The position numbers were made by a program, and so were the translations under genes. Shown here in pieces: positions 1-13,139 of a stretch of DNA of 14,415 nucleotides (the stretch's first letter is position 1; each line of letters begins with the position of its first letter). Source of the stretch: a virus (taxonomy: Duplodnaviria > Heunggongvirae > Uroviricota > Caudoviricetes); the IMG/VR virus record IMGVR_UViG_2711768057_000001; one strand, written 5' to 3'. The notes under the pieces are model-generated. The model had not been told where the DNA came from, did not search any database, and saw nothing but the letters and a program-made list of their open reading frames with translations.

Positions 1-19
1 ATGGCGCTCATAAATCTGG

Positions 20-25
20 TATACT
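20..25 (+). promoter_or_regulatory. Candidate -10 hexamer (TATACT) of the ssrA promoter; the -35 would lie outside the window
   Basis: TATACT at 20-25 puts a start site about 7 nt upstream of the mature tmRNA 5' end at 40, consistent with a short precursor leader. Confidence 0.4.
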
Positions 26-39
26 TACCTTTACACATT

Positions 40-402
40 GGGGCTGATTCTGGATTCGACGGGATTTGCGAAACCCAAGGTGCATGCCGAGGGGCGGTTG
101 GCCTCGTAAAAAGCCGCAAAAAATAGTCGCAAACGACGAAAACTACGCTTTAGCAGCTTAATAACCTGCTTAGAGCCCTCTCTCCCTAGCCTCCGCTCTT
201 AGGACGGGGATCAAGAGAGGTCAAACCCAAAAGAGATCGCGTGGAAGCCCTGCCTGGGGTTGAAGCGTTAAAACTTAATCAGGCTAGTTTGTTAGTGGCG
301 TGTCCGTCCGCAGCTGGCAAGCGAATGTAAAGACTGACTAAGCATGTAGTACCGAGGATGTAGGAATTTCGGACGCGGGTTCAACTCCCGCCAGCTCCAC
401 CA
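40..402 (+). ncRNA. ssrA: tmRNA (transfer-messenger RNA, SsrA), 363 nt
   Basis: Begins GGGGCTGATTCTGGATTCGAC and ends GGTTCAACTCCCGCCAGCTCCACCA (tRNA-Ala-like acceptor/T-arm with CCA). Contains the internal tag reading frame at 129-161. Matches my recollection of E. coli ssrA. Confidence 0.96.
129..161 (+). other. tmRNA tag-peptide reading frame encoding ANDENYALAA followed by a stop
   Basis: GCA AAC GAC GAA AAC TAC GCT TTA GCA GCT TAA read directly from the sequence; this is the canonical SsrA degradation tag. Confidence 0.9.
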
Positions 403-412
403 AATCATGATC
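385..412. repeat. attL: ssrA 3'-terminal core sequence, left junction of the integrated island
   Basis: CTCCCGCCAGCTCCACCAAATCATGATC recurs in imperfect form at 9323-9348 (CTCCGCCAGCTCCACCAATCATGATT). Confidence 0.75.
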
Positions 413-438
413 CGGATACGTCCGGTGAAGTACAGAAA

Positions 439-470
439 GCCCGCACAGCACAAGCCCTGCGGGCTTTTTT
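439..470 (+). terminator. Rho-independent terminator downstream of ssrA
   Basis: Stem GCCCGCA (439-445) paired with TGCGGGC (458-464), followed by TTTTTT (465-470). Confidence 0.7.
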
Positions 471-514
471 GTGTCTGTCGTTGTCCGAGAACATCCGGCT
501 AAATCCAGAGAAAA

Positions 515-543
515 TTGGTACACGTTTAGGTACACGCTATACT
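515..543 (+). promoter_or_regulatory. Candidate sigma70 promoter for int (TTGGTA, 17 nt spacer, TATACT), overlapped by GGTACACG direct repeats
   Basis: TTGGTA at 515-520 and TATACT at 538-543 with a 17 nt spacer. GGTACACG occurs at 517-524 and 529-536, with an inverted GTACCA at 560-565. Confidence 0.45.
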
Positions 544-585
544 GTGGTCCATTAAACATGTACCAATTATGGAAGGGATCCAGAT

Positions 586-1776
586 ATGGCGCGTATCACA
601 CGCCCCCTCACTAACAATGAAATCCTTAAAGCCAAACCCCGTGAAAAAGACTTCACCCTTCATGATGGTGATGGCTTGTTCTTGCTCGTCAAAACCACTG
701 GTAAAAAACTCTGGCGCTTCCGTTATCAACGACCGGGAAGCAGCAGCCGCACAAATTTGAGTCTCGGCTCATACCCTGCCCTTACACTCGCAGCAGCACG
801 TCAGATACGCGACCAGCACTTAATCACGCTTGCGCAAGGCATGGATCCACAACAGCAACAGGAGCAGGCGTCAGAACAACGCCAGATTGAGTTAGACAGC
901 ATTTTCTCAACAGTAGCTGCTAAATGGTTCCAGATTAAAAGCAGAAGTGTCACAGAGGATTATGCAAAGGATATTTGGCGTTCTTTGGATAAAGACGTGT
1001 TCCCGGCAATCGGTGCGATACCAGTTCAGGAGATTAAGGCCAGAACGATTGTTGAAGCATTGGAGCCAATAAAAGCACGTGGCGCATTAGAGACGGTTCG
1101 TCGCCTAGTCCAGCGTATTAACGAGATAATGATTTACGCGGTTAATACCGGTCTGATTGATGCAAATCCGGCATCAGGTGTTGGAATGGCATTTGAGAAA
1201 CCCAAAAAACAAAACATGCCCACGCTACGACCAGAAGAATTACCCAAGCTGATGCGTTCTCTGGTCATGTCAAATCTATCTGTTTCGACTCGCTGTCTTA
1301 TTGAGTGGCAGCTTCTGACCCTAGTGCGTCCTTCTGAGGCTTCTGGTGCTCGCTGGGTAGAGATCGATCTCGATGCCAAACTCTGGACGATTCCCGCCGA
1401 ACGAATGAAGGCTAAGCGTGAACACATTGTTCCTTTATCACCACAAGCATTAGAAATTCTGGATGTGATGAAACCTATCAGTGCTCATCGTGAGCATATT
1501 TTCCCGAGCAGGAATGATCCAAAGCACGCCATGAATAGTCAGACAGCAAATGCAGCGCTGAAACGTATTGGCTATGGAGGAAAACTCGTAGCCCATGGAT
1601 TACGCTCTATTGCCAGTACGGCCATGAATGAAGCTGGATTTAATGCTGATGTGATAGAGGCTGCTTTAGCCCATTCTGATAAAAATGAAGTAAGAAAAGC
1701 TTATAACCGCTCTACATATTTAGAACAACGTAAAGAGCTTATGTCATGGTGGGGAAGTCGAGTAAATAAAATATGA
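586..1776 (+). CDS. int: Tyrosine recombinase, P4-type integrase (396 aa)
   Basis: Full ORF with a GGAAGGG Shine-Dalgarno upstream. N-terminus MARITRPLTNNEILKAKPREKDFTLHDGDGLFLLV is typical of P4/CP4-57-type integrases, and the C-terminal catalytic region has HGLRS...Y. Position directly 3' of tmRNA fits. Confidence 0.9.
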   Translation: MARITRPLTNNEILKAKPREKDFTLHDGDGLFLLVKTTGKKLWRFRYQRPGSSSRTNLSLGSYPALTLAAARQIRDQHLITLAQGMDPQQQQEQASEQRQIELDSIFSTVAAKWFQIKSRSVTEDYAKDIWRSLDKDVFPAIGAIPVQEIKARTIVEALEPIKARGALETVRRLVQRINEIMIYAVNTGLIDANPASGVGMAFEKPKKQNMPTLRPEELPKLMRSLVMSNLSVSTRCLIEWQLLTLVRPSEASGARWVEIDLDAKLWTIPAERMKAKREHIVPLSPQALEILDVMKPISAHREHIFPSRNDPKHAMNSQTANAALKRIGYGGKLVAHGLRSIASTAMNEAGFNADVIEAALAHSDKNEVRKAYNRSTYLEQRKELMSWWGSRVNKI

Positions 1777-1782
1777 AAAAAC

Positions 1783-1807
1783 AGCATCGCCTTTAATGAC
1801 GATGCTG
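1783..1807 (-). terminator. Hairpin between the convergent int and helicase genes; likely terminator of the minus-strand defence operon
   Basis: CAGCATCG (1783-1790) pairs with CGATGCTG (1800-1807); an A-run at 1777-1781 supplies the T-tract on the minus strand. Confidence 0.5.
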
Positions 1808-1813
1808 CGTGTC

Positions 1814-3712
1814 TTACTGCATATCGAGGAAGAATCTTGATGCAGGATGATATTTATAATCCCCCCAAGGCATCATTCTTTTTTCTGGATAAGTAACAAA
1901 AATCCAACGCCGAGATCGTGTTATAGCTACGAAAGCATTATTTCTTTCTTCATCTAGCTCGACTTTGCTCTTAGCTCGATAATCTGGAAAAACCCCCTCA
2001 CACATACCGATAAGGAAAACTATATCTTTTTCAAGTCCTTTCATTGTATGAACAGTACTTAACATAATCCCATTATTTAAGGTATCATCATTAAGCTGAC
2101 CCAAAGCAAGTGCATTCCTAAATGAGGATAGATTATCACCGAGGCCTTTACGTTTGAATCGTGTCCACATGGATTGAAGCTGCTCTATATCTTTAATCCC
2201 TGTGGCAATATCATCTTCTTTAGCAGAATCTTTGGTATTTGCTCCTAAATTCACCAGTTCTGATTTAATATCTAAACAGAACTTCAAAATATTAGGTGTG
2301 TCTACAGACATATGATCAATATGTGCTAAAACCAAGCTAATTAAATCTTTATCTAGGTTAGATGATTTTTTTATGTCAGCATAGACTTTGCTAATATCGT
2401 AGGTAACATCTGATTCTGGATTTAATTCTAAACCGATTAATTTATACAATCTCTTCCCATCAACCCAATCCTTTGGATTAACCTTAACCCTTATAGCAAG
2501 ATCGACTATTTTCCCAATAAGAGAAACAGGCGATTCATTTCTATCACTACGCTTTAGGAAATAAGGTATATTTCTTTTTTTAAGCTCACTTTCCATAGCT
2601 TTAAAAACAAATCTATTTCTACCTATAACAACAATTTTAGAGCAATCAATATCGCCCTCAATTTCTGGATGTCTTTTTAAATTCAGTATATGTTGAATGC
2701 TATCACAAACCCATATAGCTTCAGATTCTTCATCTGGTAAAGCATTAAAAGATTTATAGCCATCAAGAGCAGCATTAACACCAACTTGGCTATTTGGTTT
2801 TAATTTATTAGCTAATTCAATCACTGCTTTCGAAGATCTATAGTTCTCGTTTAAACAATAAATTTTAGGAGTAAAATCTTTCACGAATGATTTAATAAAA
2901 TAATCTGATGATGAACCATTAAAACCATAGATCATCTGGTCACTATCACCAACCATCATGACATCTTTTATTTTATCACCGCAGAGAACCTTTATAAATT
3001 CGTACTGAGCTCTGTTTAAGTCTTGAGCTTCATCAACAAATAAAGCAACGTATTTTTTTTGATATATTCTTGCTACTGAATCTTGATTTAATAGGATTTT
3101 ATGTGCATATAAAAGTATATCATCAAAATCCACACCACCACTTTCCAATAAAGCAGACTGATAATCTTGATAAATATTCCAAATACGCGGATTGGAACTG
3201 AATTTTATCTTTACTTCATCTTCAGTTAAAAGCTCTCTTTTAATAATAGAGAATACATTAAGATATTGACTTATAATTTTTTCACGATTGCGCTTTTCTC
3301 TAACGTCCTCAACATCTAAGTATTCATCAATATTAACCCCCTGTTCTCTTAAGGAATGTAGAAAAACCTCCATCCGATCTTGGTCACGTTCAAATATATG
3401 TAATTCTTTTGGTAACCCAATAGTATACCCATAACTTTCGAGTACCCTTTGTGCAACAGAATGAATCGTAGCAATCCAAATCCTATCACGATTTTCTGAG
3501 CCATCATCTAACCTTTCAAGCATTTCATCTGCTGCTTTATTTGTGAATGTTAAAGCAACCACACTTCCTCTAGCAGAGTTATTGAGAATGAACCTAACCC
3601 TCTCAGTAAGCACTCTTGTTTTACCAGACCCTGCAGATGCAAGAACTTGTATAGCCCCTCCCATAGGAGCTTTAACAACTTCAATTTGAGATTGTGATAA
3701 ATTATCAATCAT
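1814..3712 (-). CDS. gajB: UvrD/PcrA/Rep-like superfamily 1 helicase (632 aa), Gabija GajB-like
   Basis: SF1 helicase motifs read from the translation: I AGSGKT, Ia TFTNKAADEM, II VDEAQD, III VGDSDQMIYGF, IV NYRSS, V TVHTMKGLEKDIVF, VI VAITRSRR. Start ATG overlaps the upstream OLD-like stop (ATGA at 3709-3712). Confidence 0.8.
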   Translation of the reverse strand: MIDNLSQSQIEVVKAPMGGAIQVLASAGSGKTRVLTERVRFILNNSARGSVVALTFTNKAADEMLERLDDGSENRDRIWIATIHSVAQRVLESYGYTIGLPKELHIFERDQDRMEVFLHSLREQGVNIDEYLDVEDVREKRNREKIISQYLNVFSIIKRELLTEDEVKIKFSSNPRIWNIYQDYQSALLESGGVDFDDILLYAHKILLNQDSVARIYQKKYVALFVDEAQDLNRAQYEFIKVLCGDKIKDVMMVGDSDQMIYGFNGSSSDYFIKSFVKDFTPKIYCLNENYRSSKAVIELANKLKPNSQVGVNAALDGYKSFNALPDEESEAIWVCDSIQHILNLKRHPEIEGDIDCSKIVVIGRNRFVFKAMESELKKRNIPYFLKRSDRNESPVSLIGKIVDLAIRVKVNPKDWVDGKRLYKLIGLELNPESDVTYDISKVYADIKKSSNLDKDLISLVLAHIDHMSVDTPNILKFCLDIKSELVNLGANTKDSAKEDDIATGIKDIEQLQSMWTRFKRKGLGDNLSSFRNALALGQLNDDTLNNGIMLSTVHTMKGLEKDIVFLIGMCEGVFPDYRAKSKVELDEERNNAFVAITRSRRWIFVTYPEKRMMPWGDYKYHPASRFFLDMQ

Positions 3713-5484
3713 AGCTCAAGCCATCCCCTAACTTTATTAAATGCAATAATAACAGATTCCGGAAGTAATTCCTCAATTCTCTTTCCATTTGCATTCTGTG
3801 CTAGAATCACCCCTAAATACCCTGCATAACTAGCTTTTGAGTCACGCATTTTTTCAATTATAGCACTATCTTGTAAAGCCTCTATTTCTCTTTTCTTGGC
3901 ATCTCGATACCGTTCATTAGGACTAGCTTTGGTTTCACTTAACACTAATGATTCAATTATTTCCTCACGAATATTCAACTCGTTGTATAACTCAGCTTCA
4001 ATATCATTTGTTTCTTTGAGGAACTCTAAGGAGAAACAATCAGGATTCAATACGAGGCCATCTTCACGAACTAAACGTGCTACCTGACGGTTTATCTCAC
4101 CATGAGTATCACCATCATTATCACTAATAATACAGACAGGGATACCTAAATTACTTGCAAGTTTAATGAATGGTGGGTAATTTTTACCACTGACACTTAC
4201 ACAGTTAACTCCAACACTGAACATCGTCCTACCGAAATACAATTCAAACATGGATGGTATTAATTGTTCTTCTGTAACACCCTCACATAAAATTAAGGCT
4301 CGAGAGAAAAGCAACTCACCACGGGTTAACATTATCTCCCTTTTTAATGCATTTTTTTCATCATGTTCAATTCTTTTCTTCAGACAATTTACTGTTACTC
4401 CATCACCTTTCTTTATGAATGATCTTATATCTTCTATCTCAGCCATTGCGCTCAGGTATGGTGAATGAGTACTCAGTATAATTTGTCCCTGAGATGATGA
4501 TAACTGTTTAAACAAGGTTCTTTGTGCATTGGGATGTAGATGCGCTTCTGGCTCTTCAGCTCCAACAATTGGATGTAGCGCCTTATTTTCGAGCTCATGC
4601 CGCTCATGCATAAAGCTTAAAAACGATTGAACTGTAAGCATTGAAGCCCAACTTCTCGTCCCCGTGCCATGATATTCCATTGAAAATGAATGGTTTTCTT
4701 CATCTCCGAAATGTACTGTAAATTGCTTTGATAGATCTCGGATTTTTTTAGGGAAAGGAGTTATTTCTGTGTGGCTTGATCCTAGAAATGATTGGTTTAA
4801 CCCTTGAAGTGAATTTTTTAAGCTTTGAAGCGGCTCACTTCTACTCACTGCGGTTTCATTTATTGAACTTATCATTTCTTCAAGTGCAGTAACATCTTCA
4901 TCTTCATATTTAATATATGATAAGACCTTCCCTATATATGAGCTTTTATCTTTAAGCTCATGATGTATATCCCTCTGAGCCTCAATACAAATATAGGGGA
5001 TTGCATCAACTTTTGTTCTTACCTTTCTTCTCTCGTTGACAACAATGTCTTTCCATCCCTCAAACTCCCCCCATTCATTCAAATAATAACGTTGTGTATT
5101 AAACCCACCTTTTATCTCATCTGGCTGAACTTTTGTACGAATAGCCACAAACTCATGTCCATTTGCATCTACTGCAATATTATCACCGAAAACATCAATC
5201 CATTTTTCGTCAAACTCTTCTGTTTTATTACAATGTTCATCCGTAGGTATTATTTTTAAGTCAACGATAACTTCATTAACTTTTAATCCAGAACTATCTA
5301 TATGAAGATCTTCATCACTAAAGTAACGTTGGTAATCACCTAAAGCTAGTTGCAACGATTTTAGGAAAGATGTTTTCCCCGCATTGTTTGTACCTAACAA
5401 AACGGCAATACGTCCTAGCTCAACCTCAATTTCCTTTATACCTCTAAAACCTGAAATCCTAACAGAATTTATAAGAATTGACAT
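3709..5484 (-). CDS. gajA: OLD-family ATP-dependent nuclease (N-terminal ABC-type ATPase plus C-terminal TOPRIM; 591 aa), Gabija GajA-like
   Basis: Walker A GTNNAGKTS, Walker B-like IVGAEEPEAHLHP, H-loop STHSP, and TOPRIM motifs LILCEGVTEEQ and ISDNDGD. AGGAGG Shine-Dalgarno upstream. Paired in an operon with a UvrD-like helicase, the class 2 OLD/Gabija arrangement. Confidence 0.8.
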   Translation of the reverse strand: MSILINSVRISGFRGIKEIEVELGRIAVLLGTNNAGKTSFLKSLQLALGDYQRYFSDEDLHIDSSGLKVNEVIVDLKIIPTDEHCNKTEEFDEKWIDVFGDNIAVDANGHEFVAIRTKVQPDEIKGGFNTQRYYLNEWGEFEGWKDIVVNERRKVRTKVDAIPYICIEAQRDIHHELKDKSSYIGKVLSYIKYEDEDVTALEEMISSINETAVSRSEPLQSLKNSLQGLNQSFLGSSHTEITPFPKKIRDLSKQFTVHFGDEENHSFSMEYHGTGTRSWASMLTVQSFLSFMHERHELENKALHPIVGAEEPEAHLHPNAQRTLFKQLSSSQGQIILSTHSPYLSAMAEIEDIRSFIKKGDGVTVNCLKKRIEHDEKNALKREIMLTRGELLFSRALILCEGVTEEQLIPSMFELYFGRTMFSVGVNCVSVSGKNYPPFIKLASNLGIPVCIISDNDGDTHGEINRQVARLVREDGLVLNPDCFSLEFLKETNDIEAELYNELNIREEIIESLVLSETKASPNERYRDAKKREIEALQDSAIIEKMRDSKASYAGYLGVILAQNANGKRIEELLPESVIIAFNKVRGWLEL

Positions 5485-5601
5485 ATATTCATTCCCTCCT
5501 TGATTTTATGACATATACATTCCGAATAAATGTAATAATTCTGTTATCCAGATTATCATTTGCGGAAAATAAAATATAGTATATCCCAACCCTGCCGCGC
5601 A

Positions 5602-5620
5602 ATGCTCTCCCCGCCACGCC
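5602..5620 (-). other. cos-like 19-mer resembling the P2/P4 cohesive end
   Basis: Minus strand reads GGCGTGGCGGGGAGAGCAT, 16 of 19 matches to the P2/P4 cos sequence GGCGAGGCGGGGAAAGCAC as I recall it. It sits between psu and the cargo, as in P4-like elements. Confidence 0.5.
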
Positions 5621-5793
5621 TGCCCGCTTAAGGGGCCGCTTTTAATGCAGGTGCAAAGGTAGATTCAGGCCGCGCCGCGACTGGCGCTGGCAGGGAGTAC
5701 AGGGGTGGGAAAACGCATGCAAAACCATGCACCTTATGGATGCATGGCTTTTTTCGGGAAAAATAGCGGAATTTCCGGGGATGTTTTTGCGTG

Positions 5794-6360
5794 CTACCGT
5801 GCGGCCAGTTCTGCACGCCGGCGGGTATAAATCATGTTCTGTACAGGGGTGAATTTTTCACGATTATCATCCCGCGAAGGCGCGTCAGGCCTGTATCCGA
5901 TGGCCGTTAAAATGTCGTTATCCTGTGCAGAATAATTAATTTCATTTCCTGCGGCCAGCCAGACGGAAAGAGCTTCTCGCAGGTAATCTACTGAACGGTC
6001 AAGCGCACGGTTTTTTATCATCTCAGGCTGGTTCTTAATCCCCATCAGCTCCGGTGCCAGTGCGGCGGCCAGCTCTGCGCCGTCCTGCTGCATAAAATCA
6101 TGCAGCCGGTTACGAATGCTGATGCGCTGCACCTCTTCATGCGAGAAAATGTAGCGACCGGCGGCCTGATTAACTTCCCATTTTTTTATGTCAATCAGGT
6201 CGCGCTGCGACTGTAATCCGCGGGAACCTGATGCGTTGTCATCCAGCAATAATTCCTGATATTCCTGCACTGCGGCGGCCAGTTCGGCTTTACGGTTCAG
6301 CCACGCGGTTTTGTTCGTCTGACAGGCTTCATAGGCCTGCTGTAAGGTCAGGGTGGTCAC
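5794..6360 (-). CDS. psu: Psu-like polarity suppression / capsid decoration protein (188 aa)
   Basis: Translation MTTLTLQQAYEACQTNKTAWLNRKAELAAA...KWEVNQAAGRYI...FTPVQNMIY resembles P4 Psu as recalled. GTG start with AGGAGA Shine-Dalgarno 8 nt upstream. Confidence 0.8.
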   Translation of the reverse strand: MTTLTLQQAYEACQTNKTAWLNRKAELAAAVQEYQELLLDDNASGSRGLQSQRDLIDIKKWEVNQAAGRYIFSHEEVQRISIRNRLHDFMQQDGAELAAALAPELMGIKNQPEMIKNRALDRSVDYLREALSVWLAAGNEINYSAQDNDILTAIGYRPDAPSRDDNREKFTPVQNMIYTRRRAELAAR

Positions 6361-6376
6361 GGGTTGTCTCTCCTGA

Positions 6377-6622
6377 TTAGTGGCGGAACGGCGAGCTGTA
6401 GCAATCTTTTACCCGGCGAGGTGCTGCGGGTATTGTCGGCACCGGCGCGGGTTTCTCATCGATGACCGGAGAACGTATCACTTCAAAGATGGACTCATGC
6501 GTTTTGAATGTCGCCGAGCAGTGCACATTCTGGCACTGCAGGTAACTCTCTTTGACGCTCTCGGACATATAGCGGCTGGTGCGGACGTGAGCCGCCGTGC
6601 GGCAGAAAGGGCAGCGCATCAT
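6377..6622 (-). CDS. Ogr/Delta-family zinc-finger late transcription activator (81 aa, single domain)
   Basis: CPFC...C(x)nC zinc-finger pattern (MMRCPFCRTAAHVRTSRYMSESVKESYLQCQNVHCSATF), similar to P2 Ogr. Start overlaps the sid stop (ATGA at 6619-6622). Confidence 0.8.
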   Translation of the reverse strand: MMRCPFCRTAAHVRTSRYMSESVKESYLQCQNVHCSATFKTHESIFEVIRSPVIDEKPAPVPTIPAAPRRVKDCYSSPFRH

Positions 6623-7356
6623 GACAGTAGCCCCCGTGCTTTCAGGTCGGCTTCACGTTCCCGCATTTTTTCCTGCCAGACTTTCCGCTGAACGGGCGTG
6701 GCCGCAACGTCATGCTCCATATGCGGCAGCGTGGAGGCCGACAGCCCTGTTTTAAACAGCACCGGTTCATCGGTCAGACGGATATTGCAGCCCTTTACGG
6801 CCTGTTCAAGCCACGCTTTCACCTGCTGCATTACAACTTTTTCCGGTTCGGTATATCCCTGATGGCCTGTGGTATTGGCTAGCGGGTTATTCAGAACCAG
6901 TATGTTGAGTTTCATTGCCCTGACCAGCGCGCTACAGGTGTCACGCAGGGCAACATCAAGCTCATGCTCTGCATACTGGCTGAGGACGCTGTGATGTGCC
7001 TGACGATACGCTCTGGCCGTCCGGTCACACGCTCCTTTAAGGCTGTCCAGCTCAAAAGACAGAACCTCAGCCATATTGTCACATTCCTGCGCCAGTTCCC
7101 GCCGTGCCACGCGCGTCAGATGGCGTTGTTTCAGCTCGCCGGTAACGACAGCACCACCGGCACGAAAGGCGGCGCGCCATGCGCCGGAATCATTGTCATT
7201 TTCCTGCTCCAGTTCCTTTTTTTGTGCTTTCACCTGGCTGACGGCCGCCGTGGTTTCATCCATACGGCTGGCATTGGCGAGATGCGCCGAGCGGGCAGTC
7301 TCAAGGCGTTCCATTGCAGGTTTAAGGTAGTCGGGAATAACAGCGGTCTGAGTCAT
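6619..7356 (-). CDS. sid: Sid-like capsid size determination (external scaffold) protein, about 245 aa
   Basis: Translation MTQTAVIPDYLKPAMERLETARSAHLANASRMDETTAAV...ARGLLS resembles P4 Sid as recalled. I place the start at the internal ATG at 7356 (AGGAGA Shine-Dalgarno 6 nt upstream), not the ORF-track start at 7422. Confidence 0.8.
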   Translation of the reverse strand: MTQTAVIPDYLKPAMERLETARSAHLANASRMDETTAAVSQVKAQKKELEQENDNDSGAWRAAFRAGGAVVTGELKQRHLTRVARRELAQECDNMAEVLSFELDSLKGACDRTARAYRQAHHSVLSQYAEHELDVALRDTCSALVRAMKLNILVLNNPLANTTGHQGYTEPEKVVMQQVKAWLEQAVKGCNIRLTDEPVLFKTGLSASTLPHMEHDVAATPVQRKVWQEKMREREADLKARGLLS

Positions 7357-7428
7357 GTCAGGTCTCCTCTTCATTTCAATCTGAGGAGATTCTGCCGCGC
7401 CAGACACAACAACACGATTCATTGCCGT

Positions 7429-7446
7429 TGTGGCAAAAATGGCACA
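7429..7446. promoter_or_regulatory. TGT-N12-ACA dyad, candidate Ogr/Delta activator site of the late sid promoter
   Basis: TGTGGCAAAAATGGCACA lies about 75-90 bp upstream of the sid ATG on the minus strand; TGT-N12-ACA is the known recognition pattern of P2/P4 late promoters. Confidence 0.55.
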
Positions 7447-7533
7447 AACAGACCTTAAAACCCGGCTGGCCAGAGAAAGGTCTCAGGAAAACCTTACTCA
7501 CTGTTTGTTTTTTTACTAATAACTATTCACTAC

Positions 7534-7627
7534 TGTTCACCTTGAGAAAAAAGATAAGTAATACAGTTAATTAAAGGGTGAACAGTTGAAGGTCTGACTG
7601 TTCACCGTCTGTTCACCACTGTTCACC
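7534..7627. repeat. Iteron cluster: four direct copies of TGTTCACC (three at about 10 bp phasing) plus one inverted copy
   Basis: Direct copies at 7534-7541, 7599-7606, 7610-7617 and 7620-7627; inverted GGTGAACA at 7577-7584. The octamer is identical to the P4 type I iteron bound by alpha protein, as I recall it. Confidence 0.6.
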
Positions 7628-7709
7628 CTTCTGTTTTTCTCTGCCGATACCTTTTAGACTTTATTTCGATTAAAAATCGAAATATATAACTAAAGGAAAT
7701 AGAAATTGC

Positions 7710-7763
7710 TGCATTGTAATGCAGTGATTTGCATCTGTTTGCCAGCGTTTGCCTTTGTTTGCC
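7710..7763. promoter_or_regulatory. Palindrome TGCATT-GT-AATGCA followed by three helically phased GTTTGCC repeats; candidate operator upstream of vis
   Basis: Palindrome at 7710-7723; GTTTGCC at 7737-7743, 7747-7753 and 7757-7763, exactly 10 bp apart. Confidence 0.4.
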
Positions 7764-7892
7764 ATAGCGAAAAGTCAATGTTTGTTTCCATGAAAATCTC
7801 ACATGACCTGAGGAAAAATATAGACATAATAAGGAGCTACCCGAAGCCGGGCGGACACGACCGGCACAGTATGGACTTTATGAGGTAGCCCG

Positions 7893-8159
7893 ATGCACAC
7901 TGCTTTTTCTTCCCCGTCTTCTGCCCCTGCCGCGCCACTGATACCGGTCTCTGATGCCGTTCAGGAGCGATTTATCCGCCTGCCTGAAGTGATGCATCTG
8001 TGCGGCCTGTCACGGTCAACCATTTACGACCTCATCAGCCGGGAAGCCTTCCCGAAACAAATCTCCCTCGGTGGAAAAAACGTGGCGTGGGCGCACTCAG
8101 AAATCATGGCATGGATGACTGACCGCATTGCCGAACGTAACCGGGGTTATGACGCATGA
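7893..8159 (+). CDS. vis: AlpA/Vis-family helix-turn-helix regulator (88 aa)
   Basis: [48 protein letters not shown] matches the AlpA-family pattern (RLPEV...G.S..TIY......FP......V.W...EI..W). Position divergent from sid corresponds to P4 vis (orf88). Confidence 0.7.
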
Positions 8160-8194
8160 TGGTGACCATTCAGCAAACAGCCCCTTTTTCTGGC

Positions 8195-8224
8195 TTGCTT
8201 CCCTTCGCCGTTTCCAGGTATAGT
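8195..8224 (+). promoter_or_regulatory. Candidate sigma70 promoter (TTGCTT, 18 nt spacer, TATAGT), P4 PLE-like early promoter
   Basis: Hexamers at 8195-8200 and 8219-8224, immediately upstream of the seqA-like element. Confidence 0.35.
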
Positions 8225-8253
8225 TTTATCGCTGTCGCAAAATCGGCAGCCGG

Positions 8254-8279
8254 GCGTAGGAACCCGTGTAATTCACAGG
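8254..8279 (+). promoter_or_regulatory. seqA-like element (GCGTAGGAAC ... ATTCACAGG), upstream target of the immunity RNA
   Basis: Direct repeat of the element at 8461-8501 and complementary to 8416-8436. Confidence 0.5.
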
Positions 8280-8286
8280 CGACAAC

Positions 8287-8309
8287 AGACGCGCCATGCG
8301 TCTTTTTTT
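8287..8309 (+). terminator. Intrinsic terminator hairpin with a T7 tract inside the early leader
   Basis: AGACGC, loop GCCAT, GCGTCT, then TTTTTTT (8303-8309). Confidence 0.55.
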
Positions 8310-8384
8310 ACGTCGTTGCTCAGGCACACCCATTTTTCGGGCTGTGGTGCTTATCCCATAGCCCCTGTCAGATAATGGTGGTCC

Positions 8385-8440
8385 GGGCGGGGCAGCCTTC
8401 GGGCTGGCCGGTATTCTGTGAAGCCGGTATTCCTACCCCC
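8385..8440 (+). ncRNA. Candidate P4 CI-like immunity RNA core (seqB plus a UUCG-tetraloop hairpin); boundaries approximate
   Basis: Hairpin CAGCC-TTCG-GGCTG at 8393-8406. The 8416-8436 segment (CTGTGAAGCCGGTATTCCTAC) is the reverse complement, in bipartite form, of GTAGGAA and TTCACAG in the seqA and seqC repeats. Confidence 0.4.
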
Positions 8441-8460
8441 GTTCGGGTCACCACCCATGA

Positions 8461-8501
8461 GCGTAGGAACTCCGGTGGTGGCAATAACCGCTATTCACAG
8501 G
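8461..8501 (+). promoter_or_regulatory. seqC-like element overlapping the ribosome-binding site of the first early ORF
   Basis: GCGTAGGAAC at 8461-8470 and ATTCACAGG at 8493-8501; the Shine-Dalgarno AGGAGG at 8499-8504 overlaps it. Confidence 0.5.
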
Positions 8502-8512
8502 AGGTTGCCCTT

Positions 8513-8707
8513 ATGGCTACGACCCTCACCCCGTCACACCCGCAGTTTGTTTTTGTGTTTGCCGCCGTTCGTCGCGCCGACCGTAAACTCCGCATCTGTA
8601 TGCTTCGTACCGTTGCCGGTGATGAACACGCCGCACGTCTTTCCCTCGTTCGCGATTACGTCCTCTCGTTTGCTGGCCGTCTGCCGGTTGCGGAGGTGCG
8701 CGCATGA
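8513..8707 (+). CDS. Small early-operon protein (64 aa), hypothetical; positionally kil-like
   Basis: Internal ATG at 8513 with AGGAGG Shine-Dalgarno 9 nt upstream. The upstream 119 codons of the ORF-track call (8156..8707) cover the structured RNA region and are not credible coding. Stop overlaps the next start (ATGA). Confidence 0.55.
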
Positions 8708-8931
8708 GACACTCCACCATTACCGCCCGAGACCTCGAATGTCTGGAGCATATGCGCAACGTCGGCCAGCTCGTCGGCGACCTGATGCAGGTGCAGGACT
8801 GCGCGACCGTTAGGCGTGACCCTGCGCAGCAGTTACAGCTCACCTCCGTGATTTACCTCATGACCGCCCAGCTAGACAGCGTGGTCGAGCGCTGCAATCA
8901 GCACTGGCTGACCGGGGAGGGTAATGTATGA
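8704..8931 (+). CDS. Small early-operon protein (75 aa), hypothetical
   Basis: GGAGGT Shine-Dalgarno 6 nt upstream; ATGA overlaps at both ends indicate translational coupling. Confidence 0.5.
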
Positions 8932-9248
8932 AAAAGCCATTACCACCCGTATTACGTGCCGCGCTGTATCGTCGCGCCGTGGCCTGTGCATGGCTAACCC
9001 TGTGCGAACGTCAGCACCGCTATCCGCAACTCACCCTCGATGCACTCGAAAGCGCCATTGCCGCCGAGCTGGAGGGCTTCTACCTGCGCCAGCATGGCGA
9101 GGAAAAAGGCCGTCAGATTGCCTGTGCACTGCTGGAAGATTTAATGGAAGCTGGGCCACTCAAGGCCGCGCCCTCACTGTCCTTTCTCGGGCTCGCGGTG
9201 ATGGATGAACTTTGCGCCCGTCATATCACCGCACCGGTACTGCACTGA
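8928..9248 (+). CDS. Small early-operon protein (106 aa), hypothetical
   Basis: GGGGAGGG Shine-Dalgarno upstream; start overlaps the previous stop (ATGA). Last gene before attR. Confidence 0.55.
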
Positions 9249-9322
9249 GGGAGAAAATAACAATGAAAATGAATGTACGGAAAAATCCTTTATATTTAAT
9301 ACATTGAGAAATTTATTCAGAC

Positions 9323-9348
9323 TCCGCCAGCTCCACCAATCATGATTG
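9323..9348. repeat. attR: imperfect direct repeat of the ssrA 3' end, right junction of the island
   Basis: CTCCGCCAGCTCCACCAATCATGATT versus attL CTCCCGCCAGCTCCACCAAATCATGATC; the two copies differ by two single-base indels and one terminal substitution. Confidence 0.7.
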
Positions 9349-9498: not shown

Positions 9499-12400
9499 TC
9501 AGAACGACCAGTTCACACCAGCTACCCCGTTCCACGGGGATTCCACACCGGCACCATGGCTATACCCCACCCCAAGATGCCCGCTTAACGTACTGCTGAA
9601 TGAGGCTTTAATACCTGCCTGGTATATTCCACGTCTGCCCGACAAATCATTGACGAAATTACCGTCACTATTCACTTTCACCCGGTTATCATCGACAAAT
9701 TCTTTGCGCACAGCCGCCTTCAGCCACGGCTCAACTTCCATACCGTTCCCCAGACGCATGTTGTAACTCAGCGTTGCACCCAGTTCACGATATAAACTGC
9801 GGGTATCGACTGATTTCGATTCCATGCCATTGGATAAATGATATTCAGGGTTATCAGCGGTGAACCCCCGTTAACGATGCATACGGCGTCAGGTTCCAGT
9901 TACCATCGGTAAATCGCATCCCGGTTTCAATGTGACCGCCCAGCCCGTTGCTGCGATAACTGCCGTTGGCGGCTCCACCGCTGCCAACCGTGGAGTCGCG
10001 AGCTTCGGTACCTGCTAATACCAATAAATTACCGCCATTTTCCAGCAACATATTGGTCGCTAAATTGCCGGAAATGGAAAAAGTGCCGTACTGGTGAGTA
10101 CCGCTGATTTCAATACCGTTAGCCGTGCTCGTCTGGAGAGCGGCACCGCTGTTCTGGACGATATCTGTCGCTTTGCCATTATCGTTAACTGTCAGCGTAC
10201 CGCCTTCATTGATCTTTGTTTTTATTGCCTCTCCGTTAGCTGAAACTGTTTGTATTCCGCCGTCGTTAATCGTTGTCTCATTCGCCACCCCCTCGACGAT
10301 TTGTTCGCCGCCGGTGAGCGTCGTGCCTGTCGCAGTGGCTTTTGTTTTGACGATCTCCCGTCCGCCCGTATTGACCTGTGTTTTGTCAGAAGAGGTGTCT
10401 GACTCCATGGTTAACACGCCGCCATTTGCCAGCAGGATATTGTTCGCCGCACCCTGCTCGATGCTGAACGCGACGCCATCCGCGCGTGTTCCTGTGACCC
10501 GCGTCGCCCTGGTGGTTGCAACCAAAGCGTCCTGGCTACTCTGCTGTATCCCCGTTGCGCTGCCTTTCTCCCGCACATCGAGTGTGCCGCCGTCATTAAG
10601 CACCGAGTTTTCAGCCAGACCGCCCTCATTAACTACCTGTGAACACCCATTAATAATGGAACCTTCCGCTGTCCCGTTTGCCATAATTTGTTGTAGGCCA
10701 GAGACGATATCGGTATTGATTGCCTTACCATAATTCTGAACGGTTTGCGTGCCACCATTGATGTGTGTTTTCTCTGTTGACCCACCATCAACAATTTGTT
10801 CACCACTTTCGATATTTGCCTCAGTGGCTAATCCATATACCGTTTGCTTGCCACCTTTGATATTTGCTTTATCAGAAGTGGCACTGGCATATATTGTTTG
10901 GGTGCCAGCACTATTGAGTACAGTGCCAACATCTTTTCCATAAACATCCATTTTGCCGTTGGCATTAATAATCGTATCAACTGCCCGGGAACCAGTGACG
11001 ACTGTTAATGAGCCAGCGTTTTCCAGCACTACATTTTTAGCTTCTGAATTCCTGATGTAGAAAGCATCACCATAACTGTTGGTTCCTTCGATAAGGGTTC
11101 CGGAAGTTGTGGAAGCAATTAATGCGCCGCCGGATTGTTGCTCAACATGCTTAGCCTCACCACCGTCCTGAACCTCCAGAACGCCACCATTATTAAGTCT
11201 GGTGGTATCTGTTTTAGCCTCCTTCTGGACAATCAGCTTACCGCCAGCATCAACGGTAGTATTTTTCGCCGAGGTTTTAGCCACTACCGTCAGTTCGCCG
11301 GTATTTTCCAGCACAACATAATTAGCCTCCCCTCCGGTAATAGTGAAGTGAGAGAGCTTGTTGTATCCTTCAATATCAGTCCCTGCGCCCGTGTTGGCAA
11401 CTAAAGCACTGCCCGTCTCCTGGTTAACCCCATGTGCAATACCACCGGTATAGACAATCAGCGAGCCTCCGGCGCTAATATTGCTGCCAGTTGCCGTACC
11501 ATCTTTCTCAACAACCTGCCGGCTCCCGGAGGATATAATTGTCGTGTCAGCTTTCCCGCCGCTCTTGATATTTTGCGTTCCGCCGTTGATATTGGTACCC
11601 GTGGCAATACCATGATTATTAATATTCTGTGTACCACCATTGATTATGGTATTGGTCGCGTTTCCGGTAACATCCATTACCCCGCCGTTATCTATTCGGG
11701 TCGCATCAGCTTTAGCATTCGTTAAAACTGACATTGTTCCTTTATCTTTAATAATCGTCTTGTTTGCCGAACCATATGCGTTTATGTCTAAATGACCACC
11801 GTTTTCCAGCAACACATTGTCTGCCACGTGATTGTGGATGGAGAATGCACCTTCACTATTCGTACCGCTCACCGTCGTACCGTTAGTGTTTGTTTTTAAA
11901 ATTGCACCATCGTGCTGGGTAACATTTGTTGCCGTACCACCACTAACATCAAGCACGCCACCGGAATAAACTTCAATAACATCCGAGGAGCTGGTGTAAT
12001 CAACAATTTGCGTACCACCAGAATAGATCTGAGTATTTTTGCCGTTGACTTATTATTCAGAGACTGAGTTCCACCTTCAATCATCGTGTCCAGCGCATGG
12101 CTTTCATATACTCTTTGCTCACCGCCATTTTTAATGGTGGTTGTTCCTACTGTGCTCTGTTCAACATACTGTCGTCCACCATTTATGATTGTGTTCGTTG
12201 CAATACTTCCTTGCGTGATGTCCTGATAACCGGACTTATTTATCGTTGTACCATCAACATGCCCCTGAGTTGTTACTTTCTGCCCTCCACCATCAATGAT
12301 GGTTCCATTCGCAGTCCCCCCACTTATGTGTGAATTACCACCCTTAATTGTCGTTCCATTGCTGATACCACCTGTATAAACGTCCTGATTGCCACTGTCG

Positions 12401-12768
12401 ATTATCGTACCGGTGGAAATGCCCCCGTCATGAATTGTCTGTCTTCCTCCGTTAATGGTTGTATTATTAGCCTGCCCCACAAAATTGTTATGACTTCCTA
12501 CATCTTGATATCCACCCGATTCAATAAGACTTCCATTAGATACCCCGCCATGAACATTCTGCTGGCCATGGTTGATAATATGAGTGTTATTTGTTGTACC
12601 TCGTTCATCTACTCTTTGGCTGCCATCTACAGTCTCATCGTTTACCACACCAATAACATCAGGAGTGAAGGCCGTCATCCCAGGCGGGGCATATATCAAG
12701 GCAGATATCAATAAGGAAAGTACTGAGCGGCGACAATAATGGGGACTGGTCCTGTTCATAAATTTCAT
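9499..12768 (-). pseudogene. ypjA: ypjA-like autotransporter adhesin split over three reading frames, with a short C-terminal beta-domain
   Basis: N-terminal fragment has a signal peptide (MKFMNRTSPHYCRRSVLSLLISALIYAPPGMTA); a 700 aa repetitive passenger region follows; the C-terminal fragment ends ...GVESPWNGVAGVNWSF, the autotransporter terminal signature. The three ORFs (11896..12888, 9854..11956, 9499..9825) are contiguous but in different frames. Confidence 0.7.
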
Positions 12769-13139
12769 CCTCTGAAAAGTGAATACTGAGTAGCGTTTAA
12801 GCGACCTTAGCTCTGCTGCAACATCAGCCCACAGGCACCAGACCAGGGGATTCATCCTGAAGAGACAGCGCAAGTGTATTGTGTTCACCGCTCATCAAAG
12901 ACATCATGATGAAATGATGATATTCCACATAAGAAAGAAGCATTTTTTAAACGCAGTGCGCTGAAGTATGGTTGGATAAAAAAGTCAATCTATTCAGGGA
13001 ATACGGGGGTATTCTTTTCTTTCGACAATCAGGCCGTCGGCAAAATAAAATGATTTACATAATCGTTTCTGATGAATATCTTCTGCTCACATAAAAATAA
13101 CACAATAACTTTGAGATCGCAGATTCTTTTACTTTTACA

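Follow-up and report, generated by a model that had tools for sequence, protein, structure and literature searches.

A Gabija-type gene pair as the probable defence cargo of a defective P4-like satellite at the Escherichia coli tmRNA gene

What kind of system is encoded by two overlapping genes lodged between the integrase and the packaging site of a P4-like satellite, and do these genes share the history of the satellite or were they exchanged as its cargo? The question is raised by the IMG/VR record IMGVR_UViG_2711768057_000001, a stretch of 14,415 nucleotides (hereafter the window) that represents the transfer-messenger RNA (tmRNA, ssrA) region of an E. coli chromosome and is identical to strain KSC9 (NZ_CP018323). 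An earlier sequence-only reading of the window had taken the pair for a Gabija-like anti-phage operon, composed of an OLD-family nuclease and a UvrD-like helicase and forming the only cargo of a P4 defence hotspot. Our analysis leads largely to the same answer: the locus is very probably a Gabija-type anti-phage operon, sole cargo of a P4-like satellite hotspot at the tmRNA gene, although the satellite itself has lost a core gene.

The two genes, gajA-like and gajB-like (Table 1), are adjacent on the minus strand with gajA upstream, and overlap by 4 bp which read ATGA on that strand; they are translationally coupled. Both open reading frames (ORFs) are intact and have the lengths reported at first, 591 and 632 amino acids (aa), and every ATPase, TOPRIM and superfamily 1 (SF1) motif quoted at that time was located in the proteins. 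Motifs of the nuclease start at residues 31 (GTNNAGKTS), 310 (EEPEAHLHP), 338 (STHSP), 397 (LILCEGVTEE) and 453 (ISDNDGD), and those of the helicase at residues 25 (ASAGSGKT), 226 (VDEAQD), 255 (GDSDQMIYGFNGS), 290 (NYRSS), 554 (VHTMKGLEKD) and 595 (VAITRSR). Both proteins are full-length, with all ATPase, TOPRIM and helicase catalytic residues conserved. An OLD nuclease in tandem with a UvrD/PcrA/Rep-like helicase is what defines a class 2 OLD system (PMC10781630), and both proteins are matched end to end by the PADLOC GajA and GajB profiles, in line with the class 2 OLD/Gabija architecture proposed for them. We thus assign the pair to the Gabija type with high confidence.

In the nuclease, the PADLOC GajA profile PDLC00067 covers residues 1-590 of 591 (E 1.4e-245, 814 bits), compared with only 144 bits (E 2e-42) for the PADLOC Old profile. 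Pfam domains AAA_15, AAA_21 and DUF2813 span residues 5-376 and OLD-like_TOPRIM follows at 392-457, which places the protein inside the OLD/GajA family as an ATPase of the ATP-binding cassette (ABC) type fused to an OLD TOPRIM domain whose active site (invariant Glu, DxD) is complete. Residues invariant throughout 20 diverse homologues are the Walker A lysine K37, E310/E311, H315/H317, H340 of the H-loop, E401/E405 of the TOPRIM domain, D455/D457 of the DxD motif, E496/E498 and K550. The AlphaFold2 model of the nuclease (predicted local distance difference test, pLDDT, 79.8) finds its best PDB matches in the B. cereus GajA chains 8u7i_A, 8x5i and 8sm3_A, with E values of 1e-23 to 1e-20 and template-modelling (TM) scores of about 0.6, and these outrank the class 1 TsOLD and the retron Eco8 OLD protein. 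One segment of the ATPase domain, residues 170-279 (nucleotides about 4648-4977), is mostly helical and has a pLDDT of 35-52 in the monomer model. Many of its residues nevertheless do not vary within the clade (among them P243-K246, R249-K253 and S266-V285), and the segment could be an oligomerisation or partner-binding surface.

The helicase belongs to the UvrD-like/GajB family. PADLOC GajB profile PDLC00132, which has 625 positions, matches residues 4-631 of 632 (E 2.8e-272), and Pfam detects UvrD-helicase (E 1e-59) and UvrD_C. It is a UvrD-like protein of the SF1A type that contains a Walker A motif, and its DEXQD box is formed by D227-E228-A229-Q230-D231. Thirty diverse homologues share without exception K31, D227/E228/Q230/D231 of the box, Q259, R292, H555, R599 and R602. 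The profile searches thus place neither protein outside the family proposed for it in the sequence-only reading, a result that would have spoken against that reading.

The length of the helicase had been considered unusual for GajB, and a divergent variant or an added domain were envisaged as explanations. The difference is real (632 aa, against 494 aa in B. cereus GajB) and the pair does represent a divergent variant, in the form of a distinct clade, but the idea of an added domain was rejected. Among the best 120 helicase homologues length varies between 629 and 660 aa, and is nearly always 629-640 aa. E. coli UvrD aligns colinearly with the helicase (1-629 against 6-634, 201 bits), with PcrA and Rep close behind. 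When the AlphaFold2 model of the helicase (pLDDT 82.5) is superposed on E. coli UvrD (2is1), the match extends along the full length with a TM score of 0.70, and TM scores of 0.68-0.72 were obtained along the whole chain with DNA-bound UvrD, PcrA, Rep and Deinococcus radiodurans UvrD; a helical block at about residues 385-545 of the model occupies the place of subdomain 2B in UvrD. Because about 630 aa is the norm in the clade, the GajB profile is of nearly the same length, and the overlay with UvrD runs end to end, the length of the helicase does not derive from an appended domain. The additional residues belong to ordinary full-size UvrD-like subdomains.

We have also addressed the relation of the pair to the element that carries it. 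The genes lie between the integrase and cos/psu, where they had been placed originally, and the impression that they are richer in AT than the P4 core was borne out once composition was computed. The G+C fraction is 0.336 in the helicase gene, 0.362 in the nuclease gene and 0.348 in the segment 1777-5591, compared with 0.519 in the P4-like element outside the cargo and 0.553 in the block composed of cos, psu, delta and sid. The cargo had been delimited to positions 1783-5505; its location holds, while comparison with related elements shows that the variable segment is slightly wider, ~1733/1777-5591. No credible third cargo gene was found in the ORF survey from int to cos, in agreement with the view of the pair as sole cargo. 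Small ORFs of 20-62 aa in 5485-5793 were rejected, being of chance size and without any RefSeq annotation there.

Comparison with elements residing at the same ssrA site of other E. coli genomes addresses the exchange of this segment directly. In two of them (L002 and L003), the backbone is 92-93% identical to the window from position 5592 onward, while the int-cos cargo is different: a three-gene cassette including a STAS-like protein in L002 and a gene for a single 747 aa protein in L003. In general, homology to related P4-like backbones starts at 5592-5596. The reverse situation is found in E. coli MARGA_3 (L004), where the Gabija pair is 99.2% identical, the psu region only 81% identical, and delta belongs to a different family; this satellite is intact and has its own alpha replicase. 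Since like backbones hold other cargo and like cargo is held by an unlike backbone, cargo and backbone have separate histories, as composition had suggested to the sequence-only reading. The cargo segment 1777-5591 abuts the cos-like site, and its content varies on near-identical backbones, which is how a P4 defence hotspot is recognized. The cassette is of foreign composition and passes as a unit from one mobile element to another. On its upstream side, the MARGA_3 element directly adjoins the end of a prophage of the P2/186 type (Fil, CII, CI repressor, integrase and HNH endonuclease; L004 1-5191), from which it is separated by a copy of the ssrA 3' end, and it is possible that the two are a helper and its satellite in tandem at ssrA.

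Within 5,426 complete E. coli genomes this allele was detected in five, the cassette being 100% identical in four and 99.2% identical in the fifth. A 77.5% identical copy is carried by an integrative conjugative element, and a more distant one by an island of E. coli E24377A. At the ssrA locus of Klebsiella (L010-L015), the int-gajB-gajA-cos block is 94.8% identical in nucleotides over window positions 8-6194, and the nuclease is 98% identical. In this Klebsiella remnant, the part from the middle of psu to DUF5375 is gone, alpha is fragmented (compared with window positions 9106-9273) and int is shortened, whereas the Gabija pair is intact. The defence cassette has therefore outlasted its satellite along two independent paths of decay, one by loss of alpha in the window and the other by loss of other genes in Klebsiella. 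According to a 2026 preprint, it is a general pattern that near-identical defence genes are retained in P4 elements which have become defective.

Outside this immediate circle, more than 2,100 homologues of the nuclease were retrieved at E 1e-20. The best 120 are nearly all 587-595 aa long and share 52-57% identity; many come from Gammaproteobacteria, and Mariprofundus, Electrothrix and the archaeon Methanolobus are also represented. In the contexts examined (Methanolobus, Aeromonas, Klebsiella) the nuclease gene is always followed by a gene for a UvrD-like helicase of 631-638 aa, with the same 4-bp overlap, and the Aeromonas pair was found in three different neighbourhoods. The pair is a self-contained two-gene module which moves between unrelated mobile elements. 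With its nuclease of 588-592 aa and helicase of 629-640 aa, the group constitutes a distinct clade of Gabija and not a new architecture; it has PADLOC profiles of its own, stays at about 55% identity from Enterobacteria to an archaeon, and shares only about 15% with Gabija of B. cereus. In Methanolobus vulcani (L005 1-9689), a 54% identical pair is located immediately beside a Wadjet JetABCD cluster. This copy indicates transfer of the cassette between domains of life within defence islands. A search with tblastn through 50,697 phage records gave matches at 20-26% identity only, and the pair was accordingly rejected as a known phage gene.

Table 1. Coordinates of the gene pair, its signals and the surrounding satellite features in the window
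Feature	Position	Strand	Remarks
tmRNA (ssrA)	40-402		3' end repeated at the far end of the element
attL, ssrA 3' end	380..411	+	31-32 nt imperfect direct repeat with attR
Tyrosine integrase, left border of hotspot	586..1776	+	Pfam Phage_integrase, Phage_int_M, Arm-DNA-bind_3
Predicted intrinsic terminator hairpin after gajB	1781..1808	-	11-pair stem followed by six U (terminator scan)
gajB-like gene	1814..3712	-	632 aa SF1A UvrD/PcrA/Rep-like helicase
gajA-like gene	3709..5484	-	591 aa class 2 OLD nuclease: N-terminal ABC-type ATPase, C-terminal TOPRIM
Operon leader	5485..5591	-	28% GC; cos-proximal end of variable cargo
cos-like 19-mer GGCGTGGCGGGGAGAGCAT	5602..5620	-	P2/P4 packaging site by likeness; borders hotspot
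Hairpin after psu, before cos	5718-5751	-	13 bp, -18.2 kcal/mol, z -3.3, followed by UUUU
psu	5794-6360	-	Pfam Psu, E 1e-86
delta (Ogr/Delta)	6377-6622	-	Pfam Ogr_Delta
sid	6619-7422	-	93% identical homologue in another genome annotated Sid
attR, copy of ssrA 3' end	9316..9346	+	Local alignment; same sequence flanks the intact L003 element

The element around the cassette was called a P4-like satellite in the sequence-only reading, and this holds for its core genes, their order, the att repeats and the cos-like site; it does not hold for the alpha gene, which is deleted, leaving the element defective. The att repeats bound about 8.9 kb of DNA. The integrase, alpA and the genes psu, delta and sid are present in conserved order, the last three forming the late operon of the P4-like core and the right border of the hotspot (5794..7422, minus strand). 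The cos-like 19-mer GGCGTGGCGGGGAGAGCAT differs at three positions from GGCGAGGCGGGGAAAGCAC, which we take to be the canonical P2/P4 cos sequence, and none of 200 shuffles gave a match to it. Further genes of the element recognized by profiles are AlpA (Phage_AlpA), an Ash/Icd-like ORF and DUF5375. The window is colinear with the P4 reference in 5592-9283 (73.9% nucleotide identity over 80% of the length), and the right end of the reference aligns as far as position 5622.

Seven components, int, psu, delta, sid, alpA, epsilon and alpha, make up the P4-like core (PMC10085698). Only about seven codons of the alpha primase-helicase gene are left in the window, at 9263-9283 downstream of DUF5375, after which the window resumes only about 35 bp short of attR. 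The intact relatives L003 and L004 contain a further 2.75-3.6 kb at this point (L003 12694-16299; L004 12602-15353). By its gene content, the satellite is a defective P4-like element, at best of Type B in the SatelliteFinder scheme, and is presumably incapable of replicating as a satellite. With alpha lost, the cassette in this strain would therefore be a fixed chromosomal defence pair and not mobile cargo. A 75 aa ORF at 8704-8931 lies at the place expected for epsilon and is a candidate by position alone. Inside the Ash/Icd-like ORF (8156-8707), Rfam matches to isrK (8231-8308, plus strand, 74.6 bits) and to C4 antisense RNA (8371-8458, plus strand, 81.3 bits) were found, at the place from which the immunity RNA of P4 is expressed. 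Beside the element, the ypjA/ehaD autotransporter adhesin gene (9499-12888, minus strand) is a pseudogene, broken up into two ORFs that contain AIDA repeats (700 aa and 330 aa) and a separate 108 aa beta-barrel fragment at 9499-9825; RefSeq describes it as frameshifted and lacking the C-terminus.

How the pair would act can be outlined by analogy with its studied relatives. GajA of B. cereus is a DNA nicking endonuclease, in which binding of nucleoside triphosphates (NTPs) or deoxynucleoside triphosphates (dNTPs) at the ATPase-like domain shuts off the TOPRIM domain (PMC8136825). Tetramers of GajA dock GajB, and the resulting 4:4 complex is required for defence (PMC10781630), while nucleotide hydrolysis by GajB was proposed as the driver of abortive infection. 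Gabija of Pseudomonas aeruginosa PA14 is reported to be non-abortive and to keep linear phage DNA without RecBCD from circularising (PMC12407980). Only for the systems of B. cereus, an E. coli plasmid and PA14 have protection from phages dependent on both genes and on their active sites, and restraint of the nuclease by nucleotides, been demonstrated. For the window pair, homology suggests an anti-phage function by nuclease-helicase attack on phage DNA, restrained by nucleotides. The OLD nuclease would oligomerise and dock the helicase into one complex, and in a healthy cell nucleotide bound to the ABC ATPase domain would keep the TOPRIM nuclease off. On infection the complex would nick or cleave phage DNA, and the helicase would engage ends or nicks and burn (d)NTPs. 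The outcome would be either abortive, through depletion of nucleotides as in the B. cereus model, or would leave linear phage DNA not protected by RecBCD uncircularised, as in the PA14 model.

Several observations weigh against a plain transfer of this scheme to the window pair. The two mechanisms published for Gabija are at odds, and in the literature searched no experiment on the present clade was found. Identity to B. cereus GajA is 14-16% in the structural alignment, and phmmer comparisons of B. cereus GajA and GajB with the window proteins give about 41 bits each, in the case of GajB (41 bits) confined to residues 11-72. The helicase is nearer to full-size UvrD than to B. cereus GajB, and the latter is absent from the top 50 structural matches of its model. 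Because the helicase is far closer to the housekeeping proteins UvrD, PcrA and Rep, it is possible that neither the 4:4 complex nor the GajA-GajB interface applies to this pair. Signals of expression are also incomplete. A Shine-Dalgarno sequence AGGAGG (5500-5495) precedes the gajA ATG by 10 nt, and the hairpin after gajB, which sits between the convergent int and gajB, folds at -18.3 kcal/mol (z -6.0). A simple consensus scan of the leader, however, gave no minus-strand sigma-70 match of at least 9 out of 12 positions, and by eye only poor hexamer pairs with wrong spacing could be seen. The hairpin after psu, overlooked by the terminator scan, probably terminates the sid-delta-psu operon, and read-through from psu into gajA looks unlikely because of this strong hairpin and its U-run. 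In view of the missing sigma-70 match and of this hairpin, expression of the operon is only putative.

The divergence of the helicase leads to a different account, in which the clade is mechanistically distinct. The helicase, of full UvrD-like size and including the whole of subdomain 2B, would truly translocate on or unwind DNA and feed it to the OLD nuclease, making the pair a processive, end-sensing nuclease-helicase nearer in logic to AddAB/RecBCD or to the PA14 system than to an abortive depletion switch; its architecture might depart from the 4:4 complex. The colinear UvrD match, set against the short stretch shared with B. cereus GajB, points in this direction, as does the overlay of the model on DNA-bound UvrD, and AddA, AdnB and RecB score too. 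It is also consistent with identities of only 19% and 24% to the commoner Gabija of P4 hotspots, and with the non-abortive, end-directed action reported for PA14 (PMC12407980). On the other hand, the best match of the nuclease model is still B. cereus GajA, PADLOC assigns both proteins to Gabija, and the same catalytic motifs are kept. We regard this account as doubtful, and are equally sceptical of the broader proposition that the clade departs from textbook Gabija, for example as an end-loading processive helicase-nuclease or by another complex architecture, and that it might spare the P2 helper.

Considerably less probable is that the operon is a silent or decaying relic, unexpressed and of no benefit in a defective satellite. 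The loss of alpha, the leader scan without a promoter and the presence of the pair in merely five of the complete E. coli genomes would fit such a relic, but neither ORF is interrupted, although stop codons readily appear in DNA so rich in AT, and none of the catalytic residues has been lost. The near-complete identity of the cassette among its five carriers, one of them with an intact satellite, argues in the same sense, together with the intact Klebsiella cassette amid decayed satellite genes and the general pattern described in the 2026 preprint. A function in repairing or replicating DNA, be it of the mobile element or of its host, as originally suggested for class 2 OLD proteins with UvrD, is the least credible and in our opinion very improbable. 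The helicase does resemble the repair helicases UvrD, PcrA and Rep most, and most OLD nucleases were of unknown function before Gabija (PMC10781630). Against a repair role, the slot is otherwise filled by defence systems, the cassette is swapped between unrelated mobile elements, and in an archaeon the pair stands beside Wadjet; moreover, it occurs in intact satellites with their own alpha replicase, and the host already encodes UvrD and Rep. A Gabija-type defence operon therefore remains by far our preferred interpretation of the locus.

Regarded in this way, the locus is real but ordinary, a known system in a known hotspot, and already catalogued. The cos-adjacent P4 defence hotspot between psu and int was defined by Rousset et al. 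2022 (PMC9122126), whose Table S1A lists the present locus among the P4-hotspot cargo of E. coli KSC9 (WP_053286431 and WP_053286430). The tmRNA locus is listed as a defence hotspot used by P4-like satellites in Hochhauser et al. 2023. In addition to the Gabija pair, Table S1A contains two other P4-hotspot loci of KSC9, a helicase with DUF2290 and a reverse transcriptase (RVT_1) with a hypothetical protein; this single strain therefore holds several P4-like elements with different defence cargo. As a discovery the finding is modest: few defence systems are as common as Gabija, the hotspot has been known since 2022, and the locus stands in a supplementary table of that work. Its value is rather that the window offers a clean natural case of a defence cassette outliving its satellite, intact here and in Klebsiella. 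Furthermore, the literature searched contained no biochemistry on a Gabija clade with a UvrD-sized helicase, and the present clade could help to settle the dispute between abortive nucleotide depletion and targeting of DNA ends.

Among known systems, the reference is Gabija of B. cereus VD045 (GajA 578 aa, GajB 494 aa; PDB 8SM3, 8U7I, 8J4T, 8JQB), which has the same gajA-gajB order. Its GajA shares with the window nuclease the ABC-type ATPase, the OLD TOPRIM domain and the invariant Glu and DxD, in addition to being the top structural match, and its GajB is likewise an SF1A helicase with Walker A and DEXQD box. The tandem of an OLD protein with a UvrD/PcrA/Rep-like helicase also occurs in BpOLD and XccOLD (PDB 6NK8, 6NJV; Schiltz et al. 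2019, cited in PMC10781630). Residues 4-97 of the XccOLD C-terminal region align with residues 378-468 of the window nuclease (E 3.5e-10), with conservation of the catalytic Glu and DxD. For BpOLD and XccOLD the C-terminal regions alone were solved, and in the sources cited here no phage phenotype is tied to them. In PA14 (Hong et al. 2025 preprint, PMC12407980), gajA-gajB is carried, as in the window, by a mobile island of a Gammaproteobacterium; this system needs its ATPase, TOPRIM and helicase active sites and is reported to be aimed at linear DNA ends without RecBCD.

The P4 hotspots of E. coli also harbour a commoner Gabija (Rousset et al. 2022, PMC9122126, Table S1B #6). It ranks sixth in frequency among the P4-hotspot systems of that table (153 loci), and occupies the same slot between psu/cos and int with the same two-gene architecture. 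It belongs, however, to another clade, the identity being 19% for GajA and 24% for GajB over the published partial sequences, and its Pfam strings (UvrD_C/AAA_19 and AAA_15) differ from those of the window pair, whose Pfam architecture is absent among the 40 most frequent systems examined in the table. The class 1 Old of P2 is an OLD ATPase-TOPRIM nuclease which resides by cos in the equivalent hotspot of the helper and excludes lambda (PMC9122126). Unlike the window nuclease, Old is not paired with a helicase but is a single protein, and the window nuclease is much nearer to the GajA profile than to that of Old. Finally, E. coli UvrD (PDB 2IS1, 3LFU) is the best match of the window helicase in both sequence and structure, with the same size and all SF1A motifs, at 26-27% identity and with an additional C-terminal tail that the window helicase does not have. 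The window protein, encoded on a mobile element in translational coupling with an OLD nuclease, is nevertheless distinct from the repair helicase of the host.

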